This document shows, piece by piece, positions 13,696-60,728 of a stretch of DNA of 64,000 nucleotides. Under the pieces are notes generated by a model. It made no database searches. It saw nothing but the letters and a program-made list of their open reading frames with translations, and was not told the DNA's origin. Numbering within the stretch: position 1 is the stretch's first letter; the number at the start of each line of letters is the position of its first letter. The stretch comes from Kondoa subrosea (lineage: Eukaryota). Both the position numbers and the translations under genes were made by a program. The stretch spans positions 879,528-943,527 of the forward strand of contig BCIN01000008.1 in the NCBI GenBank assembly GCA_039545335.1, given 5' to 3'.

Positions 13696-13876
13696 TCGCA
13701 ATTTTCAGCTATTTCAATCAGATTCTTTACCTCGTTACCTCTATCTGCAATTGATGCGATCTAATACATTGTCGCCCTCTTTTGGTTCGTCTGCCATGTT
13801 TCAGTTCTGGGCCGCTTCTGACGGCTCTAGATTGCAGGTCCCTGCGTTTGTTTTGTTCGGCAAGCTGAATATTCTG

Positions 13877-13901
13877 CTCTCTCTCTCTTTCTCTCTCTCT
13901 C
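13877..13901. repeat. Imperfect (CT)n microsatellite in a 5' region
   Basis: ctctctctctctttctctctctctc just upstream of ATG 13929. Confidence 0.7.
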
Positions 13902-13928
13902 CTCTTGATCTGCTACCATTTTATCAAT

Positions 13929-15875
13929 ATGGATCGTCTTTCAGTGGAACTCAAGGTCAACATCCTTGAACTCTGTGTAGGCAGCTTCGCAAATCACAAG
14001 GAGCGCAATCATTTCCTGCTCGCGTGTTGCGTCCTTTCAAAAGACTGGACCACTCCCTCTCGCGTCGTCTTGCTTCAGCATATTGAAATCAGCTGCCTGG
14101 TCCATCAAGAACGAATCGAATGGCAAGGAAATTCGACGTGGGCAAGACATGCAAGTTGTCAAGTTCTTGGCAATGTCTTCAATCGGACTCGAAGTCGATT
14201 GAGCAAACTGCATGCTTTCTTGATCAGCTATAGGTCAGGTTTCTATCAAATCAAGACGTTGAAGATTTCGAGTATCGAAGGTCAAACTGAAGAATGGTCT
14301 GGATTGGCATGGAAAAGAAGCGTCAAGACTCATTGTCAGCACCTTTCGTGCGCTGAAGTGCCAGGTTGTGTCGGAAAGCCGTATAAGAAGTCATCTCAAA
14401 AGCGGGCTCTCAAAAAGCTTTCTACCCTCCTTACTTCCACTGCTTCAGTCCATCTTGACGTATCACCTTCTCAATTAGAATTCTTTGGCAAGTTTTTCTC
14501 GGCCAAAGTCAGAACAATCACTACCTTCTTTAACGCACCAAATACCGACATTGGATTATTTCATAAAGGTGTTCCGTCATTTGCCAATCTTGACAAGCTC
14601 AATCTTTCGCACGATGACCTCAATTGTCTCAAGCACTCCCTCTGCAATCAGATTGGACGATTTCAACAAGTTTGCGATTTGGCTCGTTCTGACTTCGGGA
14701 GGGCAGAGCTCTTATGGCCCGCCATTCTCCAGTCAAGGAATGCTAAGAAGGCTAAGATTCAGACATTAGCTACTTTATCTCCATCTCTTCTTCCATCTCG
14801 CATAGCTCAAAATCTCTCAGCCCAAATCTGCTCTTTCATCCTAGTAGCCGGAGCGAGATCTTGTACTACTTACAAGCAGCGCAATGCTTTCTTACTATCA
14901 GCTTGTCGCTTCTCAAGGAAATGGGTCTTACCCGCAAGAAAAATATTGCTCGAAGATGTTCGGGTTAACTGCAGCGTTCATCCTGAGCGCAAGAGATGGG
15001 AAGAGAAAGATAACTGGTCTCGAAGGGCAACATGCGAGACTCTCACTGCAGTCTTCGAACGCACTAGAAGTCAGTTCAGCAAACTCGATTCGTTTTTAGC
15101 TGGTGCACCAGATTTGGGACAACCGATCAAGAATCTTACTATTACCTCTTTCTCTGCAAGTCCGGAAGACGAAATTTGGTCAGCTGAAGAATGGAAGAAG
15201 CTACTCGCCCATACTCCTCACGAATATTGCGTTAACAATCAAGTCAAGCAGGAATCGGACGTACTCTATGGCAAGAAACCACTTCGAAGAGCAATGAGTC
15301 GACTTTACGCTTTTCTTTCGCCGATCGGCACTGTTTCCTTACAACTGCCTACCTCTAGTTTGCGGGCATTCGTACGAACTTTCTCAACTCATCTTGTCGA
15401 AGTCGATACTTCCCGCTGTTTACCTTCTTCTCTACTTCGCACGAGCAAGCTTCTGACTTATCTAGCCGATTGTCCGGATCTGCATACCCTTTCTCTCGAT
15501 TCTTATCATTTCAACACCAAGGATCACCGCAACCCAGATCAATATCACCACAATGTCAAGAGCCACAGTAACCCTCTCTATTTCTTACCGCTGCGACTGG
15601 GGAATATTTCTTTGACTGCTTGCACTGGGATAACAGAAGGGAATTGGCTGCAGGCAAAGAGAGATCCGAACTGGATTTCAGGCTTAAAGACACTAAGATT
15701 CAATAAACCCAATGCGAATGTTAGAGTAGAAGAGAAGAAGTTAAGTCATGATTGGGCTTGCGAAATGGCAAGGGATCAGGAGAGATGGGTTCTGGTTGAG
15801 TTTGTTTGCGAAACGGCAGATGAATTGGTTTGTGAGTTCAGTACAGCTTTCTTATTGCTTCCGGTTCAATGCTGA
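13929..15875 (+). CDS. Intronless protein made of two tandem copies of an F-box-like module
   Basis: Uninterrupted ORF of ~648 codons. The halves align (ERNHFLLACCVLSKDW vs QRNAFLLSACRFSRKW; VFNRTRSRLSKLHAFL vs VFERTRSQFSKLDSFL). Paralog at 61153-62220. Confidence 0.75.
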   Translation: MDRLSVELKVNILELCVGSFANHKERNHFLLACCVLSKDWTTPSRVVLLQHIEISCLVHQERIEWQGNSTWARHASCQVLGNVFNRTRSRLSKLHAFLISYRSGFYQIKTLKISSIEGQTEEWSGLAWKRSVKTHCQHLSCAEVPGCVGKPYKKSSQKRALKKLSTLLTSTASVHLDVSPSQLEFFGKFFSAKVRTITTFFNAPNTDIGLFHKGVPSFANLDKLNLSHDDLNCLKHSLCNQIGRFQQVCDLARSDFGRAELLWPAILQSRNAKKAKIQTLATLSPSLLPSRIAQNLSAQICSFILVAGARSCTTYKQRNAFLLSACRFSRKWVLPARKILLEDVRVNCSVHPERKRWEEKDNWSRRATCETLTAVFERTRSQFSKLDSFLAGAPDLGQPIKNLTITSFSASPEDEIWSAEEWKKLLAHTPHEYCVNNQVKQESDVLYGKKPLRRAMSRLYAFLSPIGTVSLQLPTSSLRAFVRTFSTHLVEVDTSRCLPSSLLRTSKLLTYLADCPDLHTLSLDSYHFNTKDHRNPDQYHHNVKSHSNPLYFLPLRLGNISLTACTGITEGNWLQAKRDPNWISGLKTLRFNKPNANVRVEEKKLSHDWACEMARDQERWVLVEFVCETADELVCEFSTAFLLLPVQC

Positions 15876-46734: not shown

Positions 46735-47405
46735 GTGTTGGCAAATGTTCGGAATGTTCAAATGTCAAATGTCGATACTTTTCTCGTCGTATCATTGTTC
46801 GCAACACATTGTGCTAGATGCAGTGCAGCTCAGCAGGAGAACGATACAGTGCTTCAAAAGCACGAATTTCTTAGATTATGTAATTGCCTTCAGAACCACG
46901 ATGTACCCTTTCCAACGCGATACCAGGAGCCTGTTGAGCATACCAGTCATGCCAGGGACGATCAGACGAGCAGGATCTGCAACGGGAAGAGGAAAACTCG
47001 CATCATCTAAGCCATCCTTGACAATAGCCAAATCCGTCGAGTAATTATATTTGATCTCCTCGTTTTCTTCCTTTGTCAGCCTGGCCAGAGTCCAATCAGC
47101 CTCGTCTTTGTGTCCCGAAGTCGGTATAATGCAATAGTCTCCTACCGGCTGGTGTTGTGTAGGGCTTGATTCTGCTTCGACTCTTGCTCTGCCTCTCAAG
47201 GAATCGTTTGTGAACCTATTACGTACCTATGCAAACCCACGGTATGGTCATCATGATCGACTCGATGCTCGAAAGTATTCATTCCGACCACTCAGACGAG
47301 AATTCGCGCGGCATGACAGTCCAATCTCGCTTTTATGGCATGCCTGATCAGGTATGTTGTTCTTTAAACGGTGTCTATCAACGCTCATGATTACTACAGT
47401 ATCAA

Positions 47406-49610
47406 ATGCGTGGACCTGCAACACCTGTAGTCGATAGACGAGGTCGAGATTGGGAACCAGAACCTACTTCTCATTGGTCACCTGACAGCAGAATCACTCA
47501 ACATTCTTCCCGCTCCTCTTATGCATCGCGACCAGAAGAAGATCAATATGACGTCCTATCATACTACGCCGATTATGTACCAGATCTACAACAACCAAAT
47601 CTACCTACTCCTCTAAGCTATCCTGAATCATATCAGCCTCTGCCATCTGTTAACATAACTACAACAGATCAACAGTCACCTGCTCGTAAACGTCGTCCCT
47701 CTTTCGGTCAGCAACTTGTTCGCACATTCAGCTCAAGTTCTCGTCGCAAGAGTTCAGCTCAATCATCAGACATCGTCGTTCCTCCTCTACCGGTCAATGC
47801 TGCTGCCATCACAGCTTCGTATGGTTCTCCTCGTCTAGCTGTCCCACCTTCTCCTTCTCCTACTCGACCCCACTTCACTACATCAGTGCCAGTCCCAGAA
47901 CCTCGGGCAAGACGTCCTTCTCTCTTCCAGTCTTTCCGCAAATCTTTCAGCAAAGGATCAACACCTCATGGCTCGGAACCTAACAGTCCAAAGTCAAGAA
48001 AGGGGTCAGCGGAGGAAAGGAAAGGTTCAGCGGATTTCAGGAAAGGATCAGCATCACGTAAAGGATCGAATGGTTCGGATAGGCTTCTTCCAACAGCACA
48101 AGATATCCCGACAGCAAAGGATATTGCTCATTCTTTTATTGCTGCCGCACGAAGGAAATCAAGCAAAGGTGGAATCGATCTCTCTGCACTTCGTCTGGAT
48201 CCTCGACGTGATTCGACATCTGCTTCTCAATCAGCGTCATCGCTATCAACGGAACGAGTGCATCCTTCTTTTAGCTCTTCTTTGAAGGAGACTATTAGCC
48301 AGCCATACGAATTTCCAAGACGTATGGAATTTTCTCCTCCTTCTTCTTCAGTCGCAACCACATCAACAGCTGCTGTGCGACAAATCAATCACTACTCGTC
48401 GCCTTCAGTCAGCAGCCAGAAAGCCACAGTCCATCAATCTGATCTTGGGCCTAGCGTCTCTTTACCACAAGAAATCGATACTCATTCAATCTACACTGCG
48501 AGTGAAAATGAACTTGCTACTCCAGCATCGGAAGTCAATGGTATAGCCTGGGATGGATTCCAATCCTCAGCTAATTCGGGTTTTGTCAATCCCTGGACTG
48601 CATCAGCTACTGCCAAAGACAAGCAAGCTAAAGATGGAAGTGGTGAAGATAGCGAATGGAGTCACTCACCAGGAGGAAGACGCAATTCTTTCGCTTCATC
48701 CTTATCTTCACGCAATTTCATCTCACCTCCTGGTCAAAACGGTGATGTTCCGCCTAGACAATCTTCAGCTGCTTTTTCGAGAAGAGCAAGTCTGGCTGCT
48801 AGTATCAAAGATCAATATGTCATGACCTCCAAAGTACCTCTCCCTTCACCCGAAGAAAGCAGTATAGCTCTACATCCTTCTTTTAGCTCATACGCTTTCC
48901 CAGCCAAATCGTCAACTGCTCCAACTGCTACTTCAAGTTCCCTCAGCAAGAAAGATAAACGCAACCGTGCTCGGACAACAGCCATTATTGATGGCACTTT
49001 ACAATCTCAAGCTTACCCCGCCAGCAAGCAGCTTCAGCACAGAAGGAAATCCAGCTTGAAATCTATGGATTCTTCGTCATTACCCAAAAGAAGGAAATCA
49101 AGGTTGTCTGTCTCTTTTGAGATGGATTCACCCACCAGACCAATGCCACTGCCAACACATCATCATCGAGCAACTTCTTCCATTACTTCTTCTATTACCT
49201 CGAGCGACGTACCTGGAGATTCATCTTCCTCTTCCAATTATACAGCATCAGAATCAGAAACGGATGATGCACCTGATCTTCCTTCTTTATCTGGAAGTCC
49301 AACAACTACAGGAAGTGAAGATTTCTTTCAACTCAGAAACCCTTGGACTGGTTATTCTGTTGCTCATGTTATTGATGCACCAAAACAACCTTGGATGGAT
49401 GAAGAACGTAGAGGAACTTTAATGCCCACAACACCTTCAAGCAAAGGATCTTTTTCTTCTCCTAGTGTTGTTGACGGAATGCTTAAAAGAGAAAAGAAGA
49501 ATGGTGGTGGATTTTTTTCAACTCCTCAGACCTCCTATGGTGGACAAAATGGATTCAGAGTAAGCTTGGATGTTGGTCAGGGCCAGGGAAATACGTATGA
49601 ACCGTTTTAA
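47406..49610 (+). CDS. Ser/Pro-rich intrinsically disordered protein (upstream exons possible)
   Basis: 734-codon ORF of low complexity with many R-R/K-x-S motifs. An intron acceptor just before 47400 suggests a further 5' exon. Confidence 0.65.
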   Translation: MRGPATPVVDRRGRDWEPEPTSHWSPDSRITQHSSRSSYASRPEEDQYDVLSYYADYVPDLQQPNLPTPLSYPESYQPLPSVNITTTDQQSPARKRRPSFGQQLVRTFSSSSRRKSSAQSSDIVVPPLPVNAAAITASYGSPRLAVPPSPSPTRPHFTTSVPVPEPRARRPSLFQSFRKSFSKGSTPHGSEPNSPKSRKGSAEERKGSADFRKGSASRKGSNGSDRLLPTAQDIPTAKDIAHSFIAAARRKSSKGGIDLSALRLDPRRDSTSASQSASSLSTERVHPSFSSSLKETISQPYEFPRRMEFSPPSSSVATTSTAAVRQINHYSSPSVSSQKATVHQSDLGPSVSLPQEIDTHSIYTASENELATPASEVNGIAWDGFQSSANSGFVNPWTASATAKDKQAKDGSGEDSEWSHSPGGRRNSFASSLSSRNFISPPGQNGDVPPRQSSAAFSRRASLAASIKDQYVMTSKVPLPSPEESSIALHPSFSSYAFPAKSSTAPTATSSSLSKKDKRNRARTTAIIDGTLQSQAYPASKQLQHRRKSSLKSMDSSSLPKRRKSRLSVSFEMDSPTRPMPLPTHHHRATSSITSSITSSDVPGDSSSSSNYTASESETDDAPDLPSLSGSPTTTGSEDFFQLRNPWTGYSVAHVIDAPKQPWMDEERRGTLMPTTPSSKGSFSSPSVVDGMLKREKKNGGGFFSTPQTSYGGQNGFRVSLDVGQGQGNTYEPF

Positions 49611-51763: not shown

Positions 51764-53551
51764 CTAATACAATCGTCCGAAATAATGCACTAGCCTGTTC
51801 AAACCCAATGGCAGTACCCATTCTCTTGTAAAATATGGTCTTCCATAATAAGCAAGCACCAATATTCCGATCGCACTAACGATTGCGAACTTCCTTCCAC
51901 TGCTCATGCCTTGCGCCATTGCTTTCTTTACCGGTTTCTTCTCTTCTTCCTCCGTTTGATGTGGTATAACTATCCCAACTCTACGCATCACAATTTCTTC
52001 CGCTTCAGAATCGCTTAAAACAGGTATTGGTTTCCAAGTCCAAACACAACTTTTTGGTCCCATAATCTCTTTCACACCTATTTTCTCTAAAGGAAATTCG
52101 ATCCATAATTTCCTAGCGTGTAAAAGAATATCTTCTACTGATACGCTGTTTGGACTGAGTTCAGGGGAAGAAGGATTATCAGATTCGATCAAAGATGTTG
52201 GAGAAAGAGGATCAGGTTGGAAAGCTGGTGTATAAATATCTGGATCATCATATGTCGCTATACCTAGATCTGAATTGATTGATCGAGGTGATCTTGATGA
52301 AGATGAAGAAAGGAAAGAAGCTGATAGAGAAGAATCGGATTCGGTTGATGATTTGGCACGACGGGAAGAAGGTGGTGGTGATAAAGAGCTATGAAGGGTA
52401 GGAAGTTTAGAGAGGGTGTGATGTAGTATCGCAGGATCCGATGCGCTATCCGGATCCAAAGCAGCCAGTTCTTCTTTCTTGGCTTCAATCATCTGCTTGC
52501 TTCTTAAGTATTGGCTAGATATGGCACAAAAAAGGACTTACGGCTACACCTAGATAAACTACAAAAGCTGGATTTTCTGTCAGAAGAACATCGAATAGTC
52601 GAGTGATAGTAGCCAAAGAGTCGAGATCGTGCGAGAGCAGAGTGAGAACCCAAGATAATGAGAAATAGGGAAGTGCCGATATCCTTTGCATTGAAGATTA
52701 GCTCCGTCATTGCTTCAAGACGGCTGACTTACTGCTCGACCAGTCCCGATAATTCTGGATCCACCTTCGCAAGTAGGTTCTTGAGTATCCTGCAGCTCAT
52801 CTTCGCATTATTATCACATGATCATATGCTTGACTAACCTTAAGTAGCCCAGAACTGCATCCAAACTCGGGCCCATGCTGTCTCGCGATCGATGCAAACT
52901 CATCTTTTCTGCACTAGCTTTGGCCAGATCTAGATCATTGAGTACCAGGAGAAGTATAGACATAATATCATGATATCCCTAGCATTGATTTCAGCGTATT
53001 TCGTAGCAGAAACGAGACATCAATCACCTGAAAGTAGTGTAGACCTGGCCAGCTACGTAATACGTGAATGATCAATCCACTAAGCTGCTCTTTTCTCTTC
53101 TCCTTCTCTAACTTGGAAGCGCCTGCACTCTCGCATCAGCCTAAATGCGAAGAGAACCGAATAGCAGTTTCTTGAACGGACCATTGAGCAGCGAGATGAA
53201 GGACCTATTCACATCCAATCCAACCTGGTGTTCATCTCTATGAAGTACTACTTCCTTCGCCTTGCCTTTGCCTTTAATATCTCTCACACCCAATAGATAA
53301 GGCCAAACCAGATTCCTCACTCCCTCGCCTTCAAAGCCTTGAGGAGCATAAGCTAGATCTTTCAACCCTTCCCAATCATTTGTAGCTATCAAAATCTTGC
53401 ATTGCTCCAACAAATCCACTTGTTCGTTTGCTGAACTTGCAGATTTCAAACTCAAGGTAGAAGAGTCTATTCGTGCCAAGGAATCATCCAGAGGATCAGA
53501 TAAGGGTATATGTACAAAAGTACCGGTATCACTTTCTTGTGAATCCTGCAT
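51764..53551 (-). CDS. GYP8: TBC-domain Rab GTPase-activating protein (Gyp8/TBC1D20-like)
   Basis: VRNLVWPYLLG, HRDEHQVGLDVNRSF, LHYFQGYHDIMSI, RDSMGPS, and a C-terminal tail anchor FAIVSAIGILVLAYY. Confidence 0.82.
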
Positions 53552-53583
53552 CCTCGTTGTTCTAGAGCAACCATATAATAATA

Positions 53584-54133
53584 ATGTCATCGAAAGTGAA
53601 AGTCGTTAAAGCTCATGAATTGCAGGAATCGGGCAGCCAAACTAAAGGAATGATAAGACAGAACGCTTTAGTGGATCAAAGTGATCAAATCTGTTCATCA
53701 TGCAAGTTATATTACAGCTTCATACCCCGGATTTCATGCAGAAACTGACAGAAGCTGCAGTAATGATCGCTAAGCCTCATTCGGAAAGTGATGTACACAG
53801 TAAGCTCATGATTGCAGGGAATGGCCTAGAATCTAATTCCTTAATTTCCATTGTTCAGCTCACGGAGATCAAGATACAATCGTATATGCTGCAAGCGGGA
53901 CAGGATTAGTAGTCTGGGACGGTGGAAAGACTAGACAAGAGCTCAAGCAAGGAGACTGGGCTTTGATTCCTGCTCATACGGAACATCAGTACGTTTGCGT
54001 GAACCTCGATCAAGGAATGTAGCTCAAAGAAGACTACAGGGAAGTGAATGAAAGCGATCAAGATGTGGTTTGGGTCATCTGCAGAGGAGGAAGAGTGCCC
54101 AAAGTGAACAACCTTGAAGGATGGACTGCGTAG
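53584..54133 (+). CDS. Small cupin (RmlC-like) protein
   Basis: Spliced product: GMIRQNALVDQSDQICS...MIAKPHSESDVHTHGDQDTIVY...LKQGDWALIPAHTEHQEVN...NLEGW. Confidence 0.85.
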
Positions 54134-54139
54134 CGGTAT

Positions 54140-57100
54140 AACGGAACCTGACTCTTTGTAAAGAAGCCTGCGTCACCATCACGGACGCAAGAGGAACATA
54201 ATCGCGTAGCATGTTGAGGTCACAAATCACCAATGAACGAGACGAAGCAGTCCAGAGCAACAAATCGCTGCACACAAAACATGCAAAGCAGAAAGGCGCG
54301 ATAAATCAGATGATCAGGAGATGATGAGTATCAAGGACGTCCGCTAACGATAGGGCACTGCAAAACCGCTTGCGGGCACGCATCGCAAGTGCATTCGTTC
54401 TTCACAAAGCTTCCGATTCATACTGTCACAGGTGTTCTGAACCGCCAGCCTGTGCTTGCTCATGCACGACTTCGAGTGCTACCGGAATCTATCGCATCTT
54501 TTGTTGCTGTGTACTGCTGGAATCAAGTGAAGTCGTTGCACTAGGTCAAGCCGTGAGACTCTGTTTTGCAAATTGCAAAGAACTACCTACATAAACACCG
54601 CGCGGCACAGCCTGCTGCTCCAGGACTTTCGTTGCGAGTGATCTCTTCGTGTCACCGAACGTGATCATCTCAGCGAAGTTCGCGCTCAAGCGAATCGTTA
54701 GGCCAAACTAGTGAAGCCTCAATGATCGAGCTTCTTCGTCTACAGGAAGAAATATATCGTCTCTGTCATTTCTTACCTGCTATACATACCGCTTCTCTCA
54801 TTATTCGGGCCGAGTGTTCCAAGTGCCCGAAGCGTAAACTTCAGATTGATGATGGCCTAAGACTGTTTCCTTGCAAGATGTTTCGGTTTTCCTTTTGCTG
54901 GGGTACAATTTGGCCAGTAGAAAAGTTTCTGGCTCTTGTAAAGGTTGTCCAGACTAACGATATCTATGTCTTCCCCTCAAATCATACTCGGTAACCCAAC
55001 TTCTCCTTCTCCTGGTGAGTCATTCGTATAGCCTAGATAGCCTAGGCACCTATGCTGATAGATTCGTTTACAGCTTCAGCTTCCTCTTCTTCTGCTACTC
55101 CTTCACCTTCTTTGCGCAAGACTAAGAAGCAATGCCCAACAGCTAAAGGGTACAGCGCGCTGATCCAAGCTATTTCCAGCTTGACAGAGGAAGACTGTCT
55201 ACTATCTCAGGCTCAAGCACTACAAAATATAGAAGCGCAGCGAGATGAAAGCTCGACTTCATCTGGAAAAGAAGCAAAAAGAAGACAAGCTGCAGAAATC
55301 GCTGGTCTCGAAGCTTGGTGTCAGAAAGTCGGCAAAGGTCGTCAGATATTGACCAAGGACGCGTCCTTTCCTAAAGGTGAGCTCTATCCCTAAACTATCG
55401 ATACTTCTTCTAACGATCGAATATCATCAGAACAAGTAGTCGGGTATCTCAGCTTCAAAATCACTTCTCGAGCAGCTTTTGGTCGTCAATCAAGTCTGAA
55501 GAAAGATGGCAAGAAAGCTATTGGAAAGAAGACTGTTCTACGATGGTGGGTCGACCTGAAAGCTGCAGTACGTTTCGACTCTCGCGCTTGATATCTGGTC
55601 TGACGGCACAGTAGCTCCGCAAGAAATACAATATAGTTCCTGAAGAAGTGTTCTCGCTGCAAAAGGTATACACGGGTGCTCAGAAGTGATCGCAAAGCTG
55701 AAAGTTCTGTTAGACTCTCGAGCGATGGACCAAGGCACATGGCTTGACTGACTCTAAGAAGAAAGAGGTCTTCGTTCCGCTAGACCTGAGCTATCTCCTG
55801 GCATTTCTTGTATCGTCAGAAAGTCCGATTAAGGGCAATTATAGAGTAAGATTACCCATCAAATTGCACTGGCTATCTGACGTATGGCGATAGCGCGCAA
55901 GACTTGCGCTTTCTCTAGGGATCATTCAAGGGCACGGTGACAGGCCTGGCGAGGTCTCGCCACCTACTAGTCGCATCAAGAATGCGGACGAAGGGATAAA
56001 TTATTCGGTAGGTCAACGACCTTATCTCTGATACGGCTAAATGACGTTCGATACAGTCATTAGCGTTGTTCGTTGGTAGCAAGGAGGAGCGTGACTCGGA
56101 AGGCCCGACATTTGCTCTTCGCATCGGAACATACATGTCGAAGGTTCAAGGCAAGAAAGCGATGTGAGCTAATTCCCTACAGCCTGTCAACTTGTTGCTA
56201 ATATAGGAATACCGCAGCAAGTCAAAGACATATACTACCAGATCTTGCGACAATATCTTCGATGATGTTGCCACTTTGGCAGTAATGTTTCTGTTGAAAG
56301 ACAAGGCTCTTCGAGATTACACAACCTTTGACGAGCTTGACGAATTATCCCGGAAGACGACTGGAGGAACTCTCGTGCAGATCCATCTCAAGCCAGAGCT
56401 AGACCACAAGCCGTTCCTCCAGCAATGGAACCATCGAGGAGATGGTCCTCTGCCGGAAGAGCAGCGAAAACATCTCGGATATCATTCGGTCGCTCATGGC
56501 TTCAACAAACTCAAAAGGGCGTTAGGCATCAAACGAGGTGTGTTTAGCCAGTTGAGGCGTCATTGGTCTATGCTCACTTACTCCTGACAGAAATTACGCT
56601 GAAGGACTTGCGACCTTCAGTCATTATGCAAGCTGGCTCTGAACTATCATCTGCTCAGATCAAAGTCATGTTGGGTCATTCGATCAACTCCAATACCTAT
56701 GTAAGTTGTCAATTGGCGAGCTTGAGTGTTTGCTCACTATATTGCAGGATTTACACTATACTTCCATGAACGCCATCGTTGATACTCAAGCTCTTGGATT
56801 CGGAGAAGAACAGCGCGATCACCTAATACAGGTAGACTGTCTTCTCTTTAATCCCACTCCTTCTGAATCTATCTGTTAGGCAGCGAACAGTATTCGACAC
56901 ACTGCAGACTATCCAGATAGAATCTATACACCTCCTCTTTTCATGCAGCAGCTGGAGAAAATTCCACAGGCGACTCGGCGAGCTTGGCTCATCAAGGCTG
57001 CGAGCAATTGGTTGGATGAATCGTGAGCCTCTTTTCGTTGTATTGGAATCCTCGGATCCTCTTGCAGTGTTAAGCCAAACTCTAGCAGTCCTTCCTCGAA

Positions 57101-57650
57101 GTCGAAAGGCAAAGGTCGAGCCTTAAGCGAAAGCGAGTCTGAATCGGAAGAAGAAGACAACGAGGACTCTGAAGAGGAAGACTTTCGAATTATTACCGAA
57201 GAAGAAGACAACAATCTTCTCTACAGTGAAGATGGTCAATCTGACGTAGAGCAAAGGTATTCAATTCCAAGGGTTGCAACTTCTCCGATGCGCAATCACA
57301 ACAGCAGGGATAGGCAAGCTTTCCATGTTGAAGTGCCTTGCATCGTAACATCAAGACACGCTAAGTAAGTAAAGCTGTAGATATCTTGTTCATGACAGCT
57401 AAATCCGATTCTTTGCAGACCTTTGAGACGTTCTTCGCGCTTGAGCGTACACACGGGAGAGTGAGAAGAACGGCATTATATATAAAGTCTGCTATCACAT
57501 CATCAAGCATAAGCATAGCATAGCATTTGCATCTTCCATTCGCATATCACTTCGCACAGTTATCGTCGCTTGTCATAAATTATGGTATCGATCTATATGA
57601 TAGATATCCCTTCTGTCCGTCTTTTGTTAGAGTATCACTCGTCTGTCCAT
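54140..57650 (+). mobile_element. Maximum interval of a putative short tyrosine-recombinase element (ends not identified)
   Basis: Space between the cupin stop and the bestrophin stop, containing only the recombinase gene. No convincing terminal or direct repeats were seen. Confidence 0.3.
54966..57464 (+). CDS. Tyrosine recombinase, DUF3435 (Starship captain)/Crypton-like, 13 exons
   Basis: Hand-spliced frame with no stop over 12 GT-AG introns: GLTDSKKKEVFVPLDLSYLL, GDRPGE (Arg 55942), MSK, FLLKDKAL, LKRALGIKREITLKDLR (Arg 56611), MLGH (56677), YDLHY (Tyr 56757) TSMNAIVDTQALGFGE. Confidence 0.8.
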
Positions 57651-57652
57651 TT

Positions 57653-59306
57653 TCAATAGAGCTTTGGTTTCTCATCCAGTGTCGGAACATTTGATCCGCC
57701 TAGACCAAGGTATTCGCGATATTCTATCAATATTATCGATTCATCAGCGATTTCAGTAAGCCTAGACTGAAAGTACCAACCTGACTCTATATCCGCACAA
57801 AATCGATCCAAGGGCAGATCATTTTCTACCGGACAATGCATTAGCTCACGGGGACAAAGAGCGAGCATGATTATCTTACCTTCCCTCCCAAATGGATCCG
57901 ACAATTGTTCAGCAGCACGATCGACACCGAAGAACGTGAAAGTAGCAATTGCTGTTGCTGGCTGTATATTCCGAAGATACCTTTGCATGAGCATATGATA
58001 GTCCGAAGTAGCAAGTACGAACGATAGTGAAGATTCCTAGAGTCTTGACCAACGAAGGAGGAATGGCCAGAAGATAGACTGCCGCGCGATAATCCATCTC
58101 AGTGATCGCAACTCGCCTATACTGATTCTGGCTTACGAAAGAGCATTTGTTGCAGATGCTGTATCAAAAGCACTGAGAATAAGACACGTCGAGAAAGATA
58201 TGACAACTGACAATGGAAAGGACAAGTGGAATGGGCGTGTCCTTGATTCTTTCGCATGAGGTAACGATGTCCGTGGCTTCCTTCAAGCATTGCACACAAT
58301 TCTGTCAATGTTCTTCCTTTTAGCTGAATGACAGCAAATAAGTTGAAACACTGACTCCCAAATCCATTCCGCTTAGGATTTTGGCATCACTAGCTAAAGC
58401 GATTTTGTTGATCCTGTGAAACCCATCCGATCTTCCATCAGCACAAGACTGAGGGGATGTCTAATAGGCTCACGGAGTCTTGCTGGCCTTGATCAATTTG
58501 CTATGCAACTCTTTGATCAAAGCAAGCGGTACGTTTTCTTGTAATCCTTTCTTATGCCTTTGCAATTCCGACTGATTATCATCATTCATTGCTGAGATAC
58601 TTCTTGAGACTTCATTATCGGCTGATCTGTTGATTGTTTGGGTAGAAGTAGATTGGGTTAAGGTGGATAGATAGGTTGGAGATAGGAAAGAACGGAAAGA
58701 ATTGGATTGTAACGGGTCTTCATCTCGTAGGTGATGTCTGCGCTTATATCAGCTATACCAAATTAGACGAGCGATTGTCACGTACTTCAGAGCATAAGGT
58801 AAGGCAACGAGAAGTCCAAGAATCTCGCGAACAGCTGGATCATGCTCTGATTCTAATTCAGGTAGAGCGATTGACAAAGTCCGGAGTAGAGTTCTTGAGG
58901 TAGCTGTTAAGCTGGCCCAGAGCTTCCTTCCTGTATACCCCCGTACTTTCAACAGATTGCGACGAATGATCGAAAGAAGCGGCCGTACCTTCATGCCATC
59001 GATCCGAGCTACTTCCAGAGCGATAGGAGACCACTACGGTGCAGTCTCAGTTGACATAGAACAGCATTCGAGCTCAAATGACATACTCAGGCCGACGATC
59101 ATGCTCAGCACTCCTGCCAGACTGGAGCCTCCAGCACCCAGCCTAGGTGCGATAGTCATCCAATCAAGTATGTAGATAAACAGAGCATAGAGCGAGAACA
59201 GAGCTACTGGAGTTGCGACATGAGGTAAGACTGAGCCTTTCGTTTGAAACAATAGAGGCAGAGGAGCTCCTCGTGGGTGTCTACGCGTTGCAGGCAGAGT
59301 ATTCAT
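57653..59306 (-). CDS. Bestrophin-like (UPF0187/RFP-TM) anion channel
   Basis: GSVLPHV, VSYRSGSSSDRWHEG, GRKLWASLTATSRTL, LLVALPYALK, TFTFFGVDRAAEQLSDPFG, NDLPLDRFC. Confidence 0.85.
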
Positions 59307-59475
59307 CTTGGCTTGAATCCTTCGTCGAGCGAGAGAAAGAAGGACAAGGCTCAAAATGCAAAGTACGTCAACTTCGCCTCGAAGAAATAGCACGAAAGAT
59401 TACAAGGCGAAAGACAGTCTTCTGCATTGTAGTTCAGTACAAACGAATGGCCTCTTATCACGAAGCTTTTTGTAT

Positions 59476-60728
59476 TCACTCTTCTGCCTCTCCTTCCGAT
59501 TCTTCATCGCCTATCAGCAAAGCGAAACGATAGATCAGCATAAGTCTGATCCTTCTCGTACATCCACTGACCTGAAACTTCCTTGTTCTCCCTTGCAACC
59601 CTTTCCATCAAGGCATTGAGTTCCAAATCATCAGTTTCAGAAACGGCTTTTGGCTGTCAAACGCGATACAACAAGCTATCAGCTCTACGGTGATGCAGCT
59701 ATGTTACGCGTCTGACCTTTAGTTTAACGACACATTGCCCTTGGTTTGCCTCAATGACCGTCGTTACTCTCTCAATGGCCTTTTCCAATTTCTCTATCGC
59801 TCCCAATTTATCCGTCGCGTTTGAGATCATGACATACAAAGGAGGAGCAATCAACCGAATATCGATAGGTATCGATTCAGTTGCTACTTGTTGACCTGCT
59901 TCCAATGCCTTTTGAATAGCCAGTACTCCAGCGTAAGAGAAACAAGTGACTTCTAAATCCGCTCGAACTTTGACTGGTTGTGGTGTTAAGCGTCGAGCGA
60001 TGTTGGCTTTGAGATCAGCTAAGACTTCAGGCTCGATTTCTAGATCGCCAAAGACAGAATCCGGTTCTCTGTGAGTCATACAAGAAGGCTCTGAGTACAG
60101 ATAGTACAAAGAATTCTCAGTGACCCACGTGATTGAGATCTTGAAAGCTTCATGTGCGTGACCATACTTCTTGTAGCAAGGCCAGGTGATAGCTTGATGT
60201 AAACTTTCTAGATCTTTGCCAGTCTTTTCCGCTACGTTGCGCATAATCGAATGCACAGTTTTCGACTTGTTGTACTTGTCTTCACATTTCTGAATATCTT
60301 CTGCTGAGACTCTTCGTTTCGACAAATCTATGTAGCCTGTGCGTCGAACCATACGAAATAAATTCAACCCCGAATTCATGAAAGTGCTCAAACGCACCTT
60401 TCTCTTTATCTACCCTCATGACGACCACTACTTCGTTCCTTCCTACTCTAATGAGTTTCTGAATAGACCGGATACGCCTTCGAGAGAGTTCAGAGAGCAG
60501 AATCATTCCTTCCACATTATCGTATTCGAGCTACAACGCATCCAAATCAGCCCGCTATTGGCTACAAATATGCGCTGACTGACCAGCTTGACGTAGGCTC
60601 CCATCTCTTGAATCTGCTTGACCTGCACCATCACCTATTTCATGGATTTCAATTTCGCTCTGTCAGAGGTGAAAGCGACAAAATACGAGCTCATCCACGT
60701 CTGGCAGCGCATTGGCATAGTACCTCAT
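59476..60728 (-). CDS. SUI2: Translation initiation factor eIF2 alpha
   Basis: [73 protein letters not shown]. Confidence 0.97.

Follow-up and report, generated by a model that had tools for sequence, protein, structure and literature searches.

An intact thirteen-exon gene of Kondoa subrosea with candidate tyrosine recombinase motifs and a possible kinship to Starship captains

Does a stretch of yeast DNA in which only fragmentary open reading frames (ORFs) can be seen hold an intact recombinase gene, and is such a gene part of a mobile element? The question is raised by positions 54966..57464 (+ strand) of a 64,000-nucleotide stretch of Kondoa subrosea (assembly GCA_039545335.1, contig BCIN01000008.1, positions 879,528 to 943,527), the whole of which was analysed and is called the window from here on. 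A first-pass annotation had described a hidden gene of 12 introns at this place, encoding a tyrosine recombinase of the DUF3435 type, the family of the Starship captains. This interpretation is partly supported. The gene is real and intact, and we lean, short of firm conviction, towards seeing in it a very divergent resident “solo” recombinase of the Crypton/Starship (DUF3435) clan, encoded by an intron-rich nuclear gene.

We began with the gene itself. Joining 13 exons, from an ATG at 54966 to a TGA at 57462-57464, gives a stop-free product of 623 amino acids (1872 nt). All 12 introns have the form GTR...YAG and a length of 44-66 nt, and a CTRAY/CTCAC branch-like motif is found 15-21 nt upstream of the 3' splice site in 11 of the 12. 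Retention of any single intron introduces an in-frame stop after 1-22 codons. As a chance control, a dynamic-programming frame search was run that admits any GTR..YAG intron of 44-66 nt, up to 12 introns. On the real strand this blind search returned a frame of 1944 nt and recovered 10 of the 12 introns of the model exactly, compared with 534 nt on the reverse complement. None of 100 shuffled sequences reached 1872 nt (median 450, maximum 1110). Under a looser GT..AG rule none of 20 shuffles reached that length, with one at 1698 nt, and the stop-free frame by itself is therefore only moderately rare.

Further support comes from P0004, a 173-residue metagenome ORF that aligns with spliced residues 248-400 (E 2e-29, 38% identity). 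The alignment spans the joint of exons 6 and 7 with a gap of 3 residues only. At residues 50-67, P0004 carries a 17-residue insert precisely at the joint of exons 7 and 8 (56163/56218), the site of a 54-nt intron in the window. This is what an in-frame unspliced intron at a conserved position would look like, and it suggests an intron read through by a prokaryote-style gene caller. The claim of a hidden, intact gene of 12 introns, of which the ORF listing shows fragments only, is thus confirmed.

The model opens with exon 1 (54966..55014, residues 1-16), whose start is uncertain, followed by exon 2 (55074..55376, residues 17-117), which has a Ser-rich N-terminus and where the presumed core-binding region begins. 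Next are exon 3 (55431..55567, residues 118-163), exon 4 (55615..55665, residues 164-180) and exon 5 (55714..55845, residues 181-224). The start of exon 4 is fixed at 55615, after the acceptor TAG at 55612-55614, because use of the CAG 3 bases upstream introduces an in-frame TAG stop. Exons 6 to 10 hold the candidate catalytic domain and are described below. The remainder consists of exon 11 (56880..57022, residues 470-516), a C-terminal extension with no family match, exon 12 (57089..57364, residues 517-608), an acidic Ser/Glu-rich tail, and exon 13 (57419..57464, residues 609-623), with a basic end and the stop codon.

Judged from the sequence, the model is ambiguous at two points, namely the start (54966 or 55052) and the acceptor of intron 11. 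The ATG at 55052 lies within the proposed intron 1, in frame with exon 2. Its use removes intron 1, and the gene may then have 11 introns and another N-terminus. Intron 11 (57023-57088) has two in-frame acceptors, at 57067 (an intron of 45 nt) and at 57088 (66 nt). With the first of these exon 12 starts at 57068, which adds 7 residues and gives a product of 630 amino acids. Intron 11 is also the sole intron lacking a CTRAY-type branch motif. Within the acidic tail of exon 12 there is an exact 15-nt direct repeat, GAAGAAGAAGACAAC, at 57147-57161 and 57198-57212, that reflects the repetitive Glu/Asp-rich coding sequence.

As for the nature of the product, every motif named in the first-pass annotation was found: GDRPGE at residue 239, YMSK at 288, LKDLR at 408, MLGH at 431, DLHY at 442 and VDTQ at 452. 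The candidate catalytic residues R241, K291, K409xxR412, H434 and Y445 (or Y441) stand in the R-K-KxxR-H-Y order that had been claimed. R241 (55942-55944) is encoded in exon 6 (55894..56007, residues 225-262), within GDRPGE. K291 (56141-56143), in the YMSK of exon 7 (56057..56163, residues 263-297), is kept in P0004, where the motif reads LMSK. Exon 9 (56591..56700, residues 405-441) contributes LKDLR, with K409 (56602-56604) and R412 (56611-56613), MLGH, with H434 (56677-56679), and Y441 (56698-56700). Finally, exon 10 (56748..56831, residues 442-469) holds VDTQ and DLHY, the latter with Y445 (56757-56759), the likelier nucleophile.

The spacings between these residues are 36 (K409-Y445), 22 (R412-H434) and 11 (H434-Y445), where the corresponding values in Escherichia coli XerD are 35, 23 and 9. 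Both the catalytic order and the canonical spacing of the tyrosine recombinase superfamily are present, with Lys replacing the first His. In type IB topoisomerases, too, a Lys occupies the first place of the HxxR-type motif, and by this analogy the chemistry of a KxxR active site is plausible. The layout and spacing also resemble those of the Starship captain HhpA, which has the arrangement R-K-(H/Y)xxR-H-Y and in which 35 residues separate Y381 from Y416 (PMC10104507).

A recombinase profile was built from 13 recombinases of E. coli K-12 and run on the full spliced protein. Its best local match is at residues 395-448, with R412, H434 and Y445 paired with catalytic columns, and hhalign selects the same stretch. 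In this respect box II aligns in the manner of XerD, and the protein is comparable to XerC/D, Cre and lambda Int (PF00589). It differs from these bacterial and phage recombinases in the interval of the catalytic domain between the Lys and KxxR, which is about twice as long here, and in its eukaryotic N- and C-terminal extensions.

Of all the pieces, only exon 8 (56218..56537, residues 298-404) has relatives in the databases and a feature profile like that of DUF3435. It is flanked by the candidate Lys of exon 7 and the KxxR of exon 9, the position expected for this part of a recombinase catalytic domain. In an Atlas language-model search its nearest clusters were DUF3435 (0.93; 181 of 256 features shared; 11 of 30 matches), then DUF3504 (0.89) and NDC10_II (0.86). 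The ten best family-bearing matches all belong to one family or clan, with a recognition value of 2610. This signal is independent of the catalytic motifs, because exon 8 carries none of those named in the first-pass annotation. P0004, which covers exons 6-8, was likewise closer to DUF3435 (0.90) than to Phage_integrase (0.82), and its Atlas model superposes on a 617-residue DUF3435 protein with a template modelling (TM) score of 0.67 over 142 residues, which by the wording of the tool “meets the bar for a name”.

The family tests covered the exon pieces and the fragments of relatives, the longest piece having 173 residues, where the PF11917 (DUF3435) model spans a whole domain. At E <= 10 neither PF11917 nor any other recombinase family of Pfam was matched by 10 exon pieces, 6 stop-to-stop frames or the relatives P0001, P0003 and P0004. 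Since no scanned piece reaches any Pfam recombinase model, membership in DUF3435 is a lead and not a passed test, and the clan assignment, which rests mainly on Atlas, stays at that level. The earlier suggestion that the gene fits DUF3435 better than phage integrases is favoured by the Atlas comparisons, which gave the only family-level signals, and left without a Pfam match on the pieces.

Relatives of the gene are rare. When 1.84 billion representatives were searched exhaustively by phmmer with exon 8 as the query, 3 matches came out at E <= 0.001. Two of them, P0001 at 44% identity (E 2.3e-15) and P0003 at 40% identity (E 1.3e-6), are probably genuine relatives, and both are short ORFs on contigs of 1-3 kb. 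The third, P0002, is a repeat protein of 6301 residues (E 1.6e-11) and was set aside as a probable chance similarity amplified by repeats; exon 8 matches it in 15 repeated stretches of about 70 residues (TLVQ...FL.SW...DPL). Because only these 3 matches, with two apparent relatives, were obtained from so many representatives, the lineage is almost unsampled. Distant relatives exist in other environmental organisms. Word-index searches returned no matches for exon 8 against longer proteins, nor, at E <= 10, for the fragment alignment against longer proteins or for the frame of exon 9 against proteins similar to it in length. No loci of relatives were found in metagenome contigs (searched with an alignment and with P0003), genome contigs or viral contigs.

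Turning to the locus, the first-pass annotation had placed the gene between a cupin and a bestrophin gene near eIF2-alpha, and all three neighbours are located as described. Cupin_2 (53837-54022, +) is upstream, Bestrophin_2 (57653-59399, -) is convergent downstream, and eIF2-alpha (59699-60409, -) comes next. The spacer from the cupin gene to the ATG (54140..54965) and that from the stop to the bestrophin gene (57465..57652) put host genes at about 0.8 kb upstream and 0.19 kb downstream. Elsewhere in the window we found F-box, amino-acid permease, alanyl-tRNA synthetase, RhoGAP, Psg1, TCP-1 and HATPase_c pieces, and the surroundings are housekeeping genes. No transposon-type families were detected in 24 + 16 long frames of the window. 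Two long uninterrupted frames, 47391-49610 (+, 739 residues) and 13869-15875 (+, 668 residues), stand out in a window that is otherwise fragmented by introns; neither has a Pfam match at E <= 0.01.

The gene does not stand out from its surroundings in composition, with a G+C fraction of 0.465-0.477 against 0.39-0.48 across the window. The three neighbouring genes, in crude models, have 4-8 introns of 43-89 nt, and for that reason the introns of the gene are considered host-like, though denser, as there are 12 in 1.87 kb. Crypton genes of a basidiomycete yeast also contain introns.

The gene is single copy. The window holds no paralogue, and the region 52500-59500 corresponded, at a likeness of at least 80%, to one contig in each of two contig sets of about 18.8 Mb, possibly from the source sample, with no joints and no loose ends. 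A copy search had been proposed in the first-pass annotation, and several copies were seen neither in the window nor in these two sets. As for element ends, the two spacers share no repeat beyond chance: the longest has 9 nt, direct or inverted, where shuffles give 7-12 nt. An inverted pair at 54839-54854/57498-57513 (16 nt, 81% complementary, 127 nt ahead of the ATG and 34 nt past the stop) was rejected as element ends, since 8.5 kb hold 23 pairs of this kind and it is within chance. The locus does not show the position typical of a captain, at the 5' end of a large cargo element bounded by direct, sometimes inverted, repeats.

How does the gene compare with the Starship captains (DUF3435, PF11917; PMC11162782, PMC10104507, PMC9156397)? 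These are its nearest neighbours by language model and by Atlas structure. The host is likewise a fungus, and the product, at about 600 residues, is near the 588-residue average of family-level captains (PMC11162782). The gene also resembles Family 11, and most captains, in having no identifiable element boundaries (PMC11162782). In the same report, 10212 “solo” captains are set against 559 bounded elements, and Starship-type recombinases lacking identifiable boundaries, notably those of Family 11, are enriched in Basidiomycete lineages. Unlike the captains, the Kondoa gene matches PF11917 on none of its pieces, is split by 12 spliceosomal introns, is single copy and lacks both cargo and terminal repeats, direct or inverted; moreover, its host does not look like one of the Pezizomycotina but like an intron-rich yeast of basidiomycete type.

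On our favoured explanation, a resident solo recombinase, residues from about 90 to 225 would form the core-binding region and those from about 225 to 470 the catalytic domain. R241, K291, K409, R412 and H434 would activate the scissile phosphate, with the Lys substituting for the His or Tyr of the HxxR/YxxR motif. Y445, or less likely Y441, would attack the phosphate and become joined to it as a 3'-phosphotyrosine, in the manner of Cre, XerD and the captain HhpA, and strand exchange between two short sites would lead to DNA excision or integration. During a long residence at the locus, the gene would have taken on or retained introns and a composition of host type; it has no recognisable ends or cargo. 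We read it as something other than a currently active cargo-less Starship. Recombination of specific sites could still occur if such sites exist, and none were found at the locus.

Several observations weigh against this explanation. The match to the 13-sequence profile scores 2.0 bits, equalled by 42 of 2000 shuffles, so that the resemblance to bacterial and phage recombinases is statistically weak; hhalign gives P = 0.12, and a profile of box II only is equalled by 133 of 5000 shuffles. A loose form of the motif pattern arises in 204 of 20000 shuffles, and for this reason the catalytic layout alone is a weak feature. Given these statistics, the motif evidence for a recombinase is suggestive only. 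The Starship clades have been described with HxxR or YxxR (PMC11162782), in contrast to the KxxR found here. Besides the absence of recombinase matches in Pfam, searches of PHROGs and NCBIfam with 7 pieces and P0004 gave nothing relevant, and sequence and profile searches of the PDB gave chance matches only. AlphaFold2 applied to the fragment alignment reached a mean predicted local distance difference test (pLDDT) of 41. The Atlas tool itself describes its scores as leads, 4-10 of every 100 shuffled proteins reaching 0.9, and the two Atlas results, for exon 8 and for P0004, are not independent because the query sequences are homologous. Lastly, the long residence is argued from an absence of evidence.

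Among the alternatives, the one that survives best is a domesticated, recombinase-derived host gene with a role in DNA binding, chromatin function or programmed recombination, as for Ndc10/Cbf2, Gcr1 and the DUF3504 genes (PMC3212892). We consider it unlikely, though worth keeping in view. Like those derivatives, the Kondoa gene is a single-copy gene of host type with a recombinase-like ancestry, intron-rich, host-like in composition and set among housekeeping genes, and DUF3504 and NDC10_II clusters are among its Atlas neighbours. Relatives with about 40% identity in other organisms suggest that the coding sequence has been maintained, and there are precedents of Crypton domestication in both fungi and animals (PMC3212892). 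The acidic and basic tail may serve contacts with proteins or chromatin. On the other hand, domestication is recognised by two marks combined, the loss of the catalytic residues and a conserved orthology in single copy. In the domesticated Crypton derivatives known so far, Msn1/Hot1 included, most catalytic residues are gone (PMC3212892), whereas the Kondoa gene, present as a single copy, keeps candidates for all of them (Arg, Lys, Arg, His and Tyr), with only the change from His to Lys. In addition, 3 relatives' fragments among 1.84 billion representatives are thin for a conserved host gene.

Slightly less probable than domestication is a minimal mobile element of about 3.4 kb that is active or was so recently, either a Crypton-type transposon or a cargo-less Starship, with movement via short cryptic direct repeats. 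The size fits Cryptons: the CryptonF elements of fungi and oomycetes share with this locus a unit of about 3.5 kb with essentially one recombinase gene and no long terminal repeats (PMC3212892). Since Cryptons have no long terminal or inverted repeats and are flanked by repeats of 4-6 bp only (PMC3212892, PMC7175516), the lack of detected ends does not exclude one. Cryptons are known from, and were first discovered in, a basidiomycete yeast (PMC3212892), solo captains are common (PMC11162782), and the set of candidate catalytic residues is complete. Against this, the exon 11 and exon 12 pieces show no match to GCR1_C at E <= 10, the DNA-binding domain of CryptonF; this search covered the pieces only. 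The Atlas neighbours of exon 8 point the same way, DUF3435 being first and the Crypton-derived NDC10_II lower (0.86 against 0.93). CryptonF also differs in copy number, the Kondoa gene being single copy, and its introns are packed more densely than those in the crude models of three neighbours. The convergent host gene is only about 190 bp away. Nothing at the locus, with its single copy, flank repeats at chance level, no cargo and no contrast in composition, shows the minimal cargo-less element that had been put forward in the first-pass annotation.

The least probable of these alternatives, a lineage-restricted protein that does something else and bears the R, K, KxxR, GH and Y motifs by coincidence, would account for the lack of HMM (hidden Markov model), PDB or profile matches on the pieces, for generic recombinase tests that reach only p of about 0.01-0.03 (and the hhalign value above), for the poor fold of the fragments and for language-model neighbours, which can be wrong, but it leaves aside that the motif-free exon 8 points to DUF3435, DUF3504 and NDC10_II, that the Atlas structure of P0004 matches a DUF3435 protein and that motif order and spacing agree with XerD and HhpA.

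A bolder form of our favoured explanation can be drawn, which we regard as improbable, to the same degree as the mobile element. Here, a catalytically competent recombinase of the Starship/Crypton clan with a KxxR site would have been kept for long as a single-copy spliced host gene in basidiomycete-type yeasts, either as a “domesticated but still active” captain doing programmed rearrangement of host DNA, or as a missing link between Cryptons and Starships outside the Pezizomycotina.

To our knowledge, Starship captains and Cryptons are the sole tyrosine-recombinase DNA transposons of fungi. The origin of both, and their presence outside the Pezizomycotina, are described as open questions (PMC11162782). 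The first-pass annotation had also proposed an undescribed basidiomycete lineage, and the novelty of that proposal is partly pre-empted by the Basidiomycete-enriched Family 11, already reported without boundaries (PMC11162782). In this sense a resident solo recombinase in Kondoa would be a modest addition to the clan recombinases without element boundaries that are known from Basidiomycetes. If the explanation is true, a basidiomycete-type yeast holds a clan member that is intact, single-copy, heavily spliced and divergent enough to escape standard domain scans of its pieces. Counts of such genes, if confirmed, would be too low, as both gene callers and HMM scans fail to recognise them. The Kondoa gene would also give a small and manageable system in which to ask whether solo captains remain active, are decaying or have been exapted.

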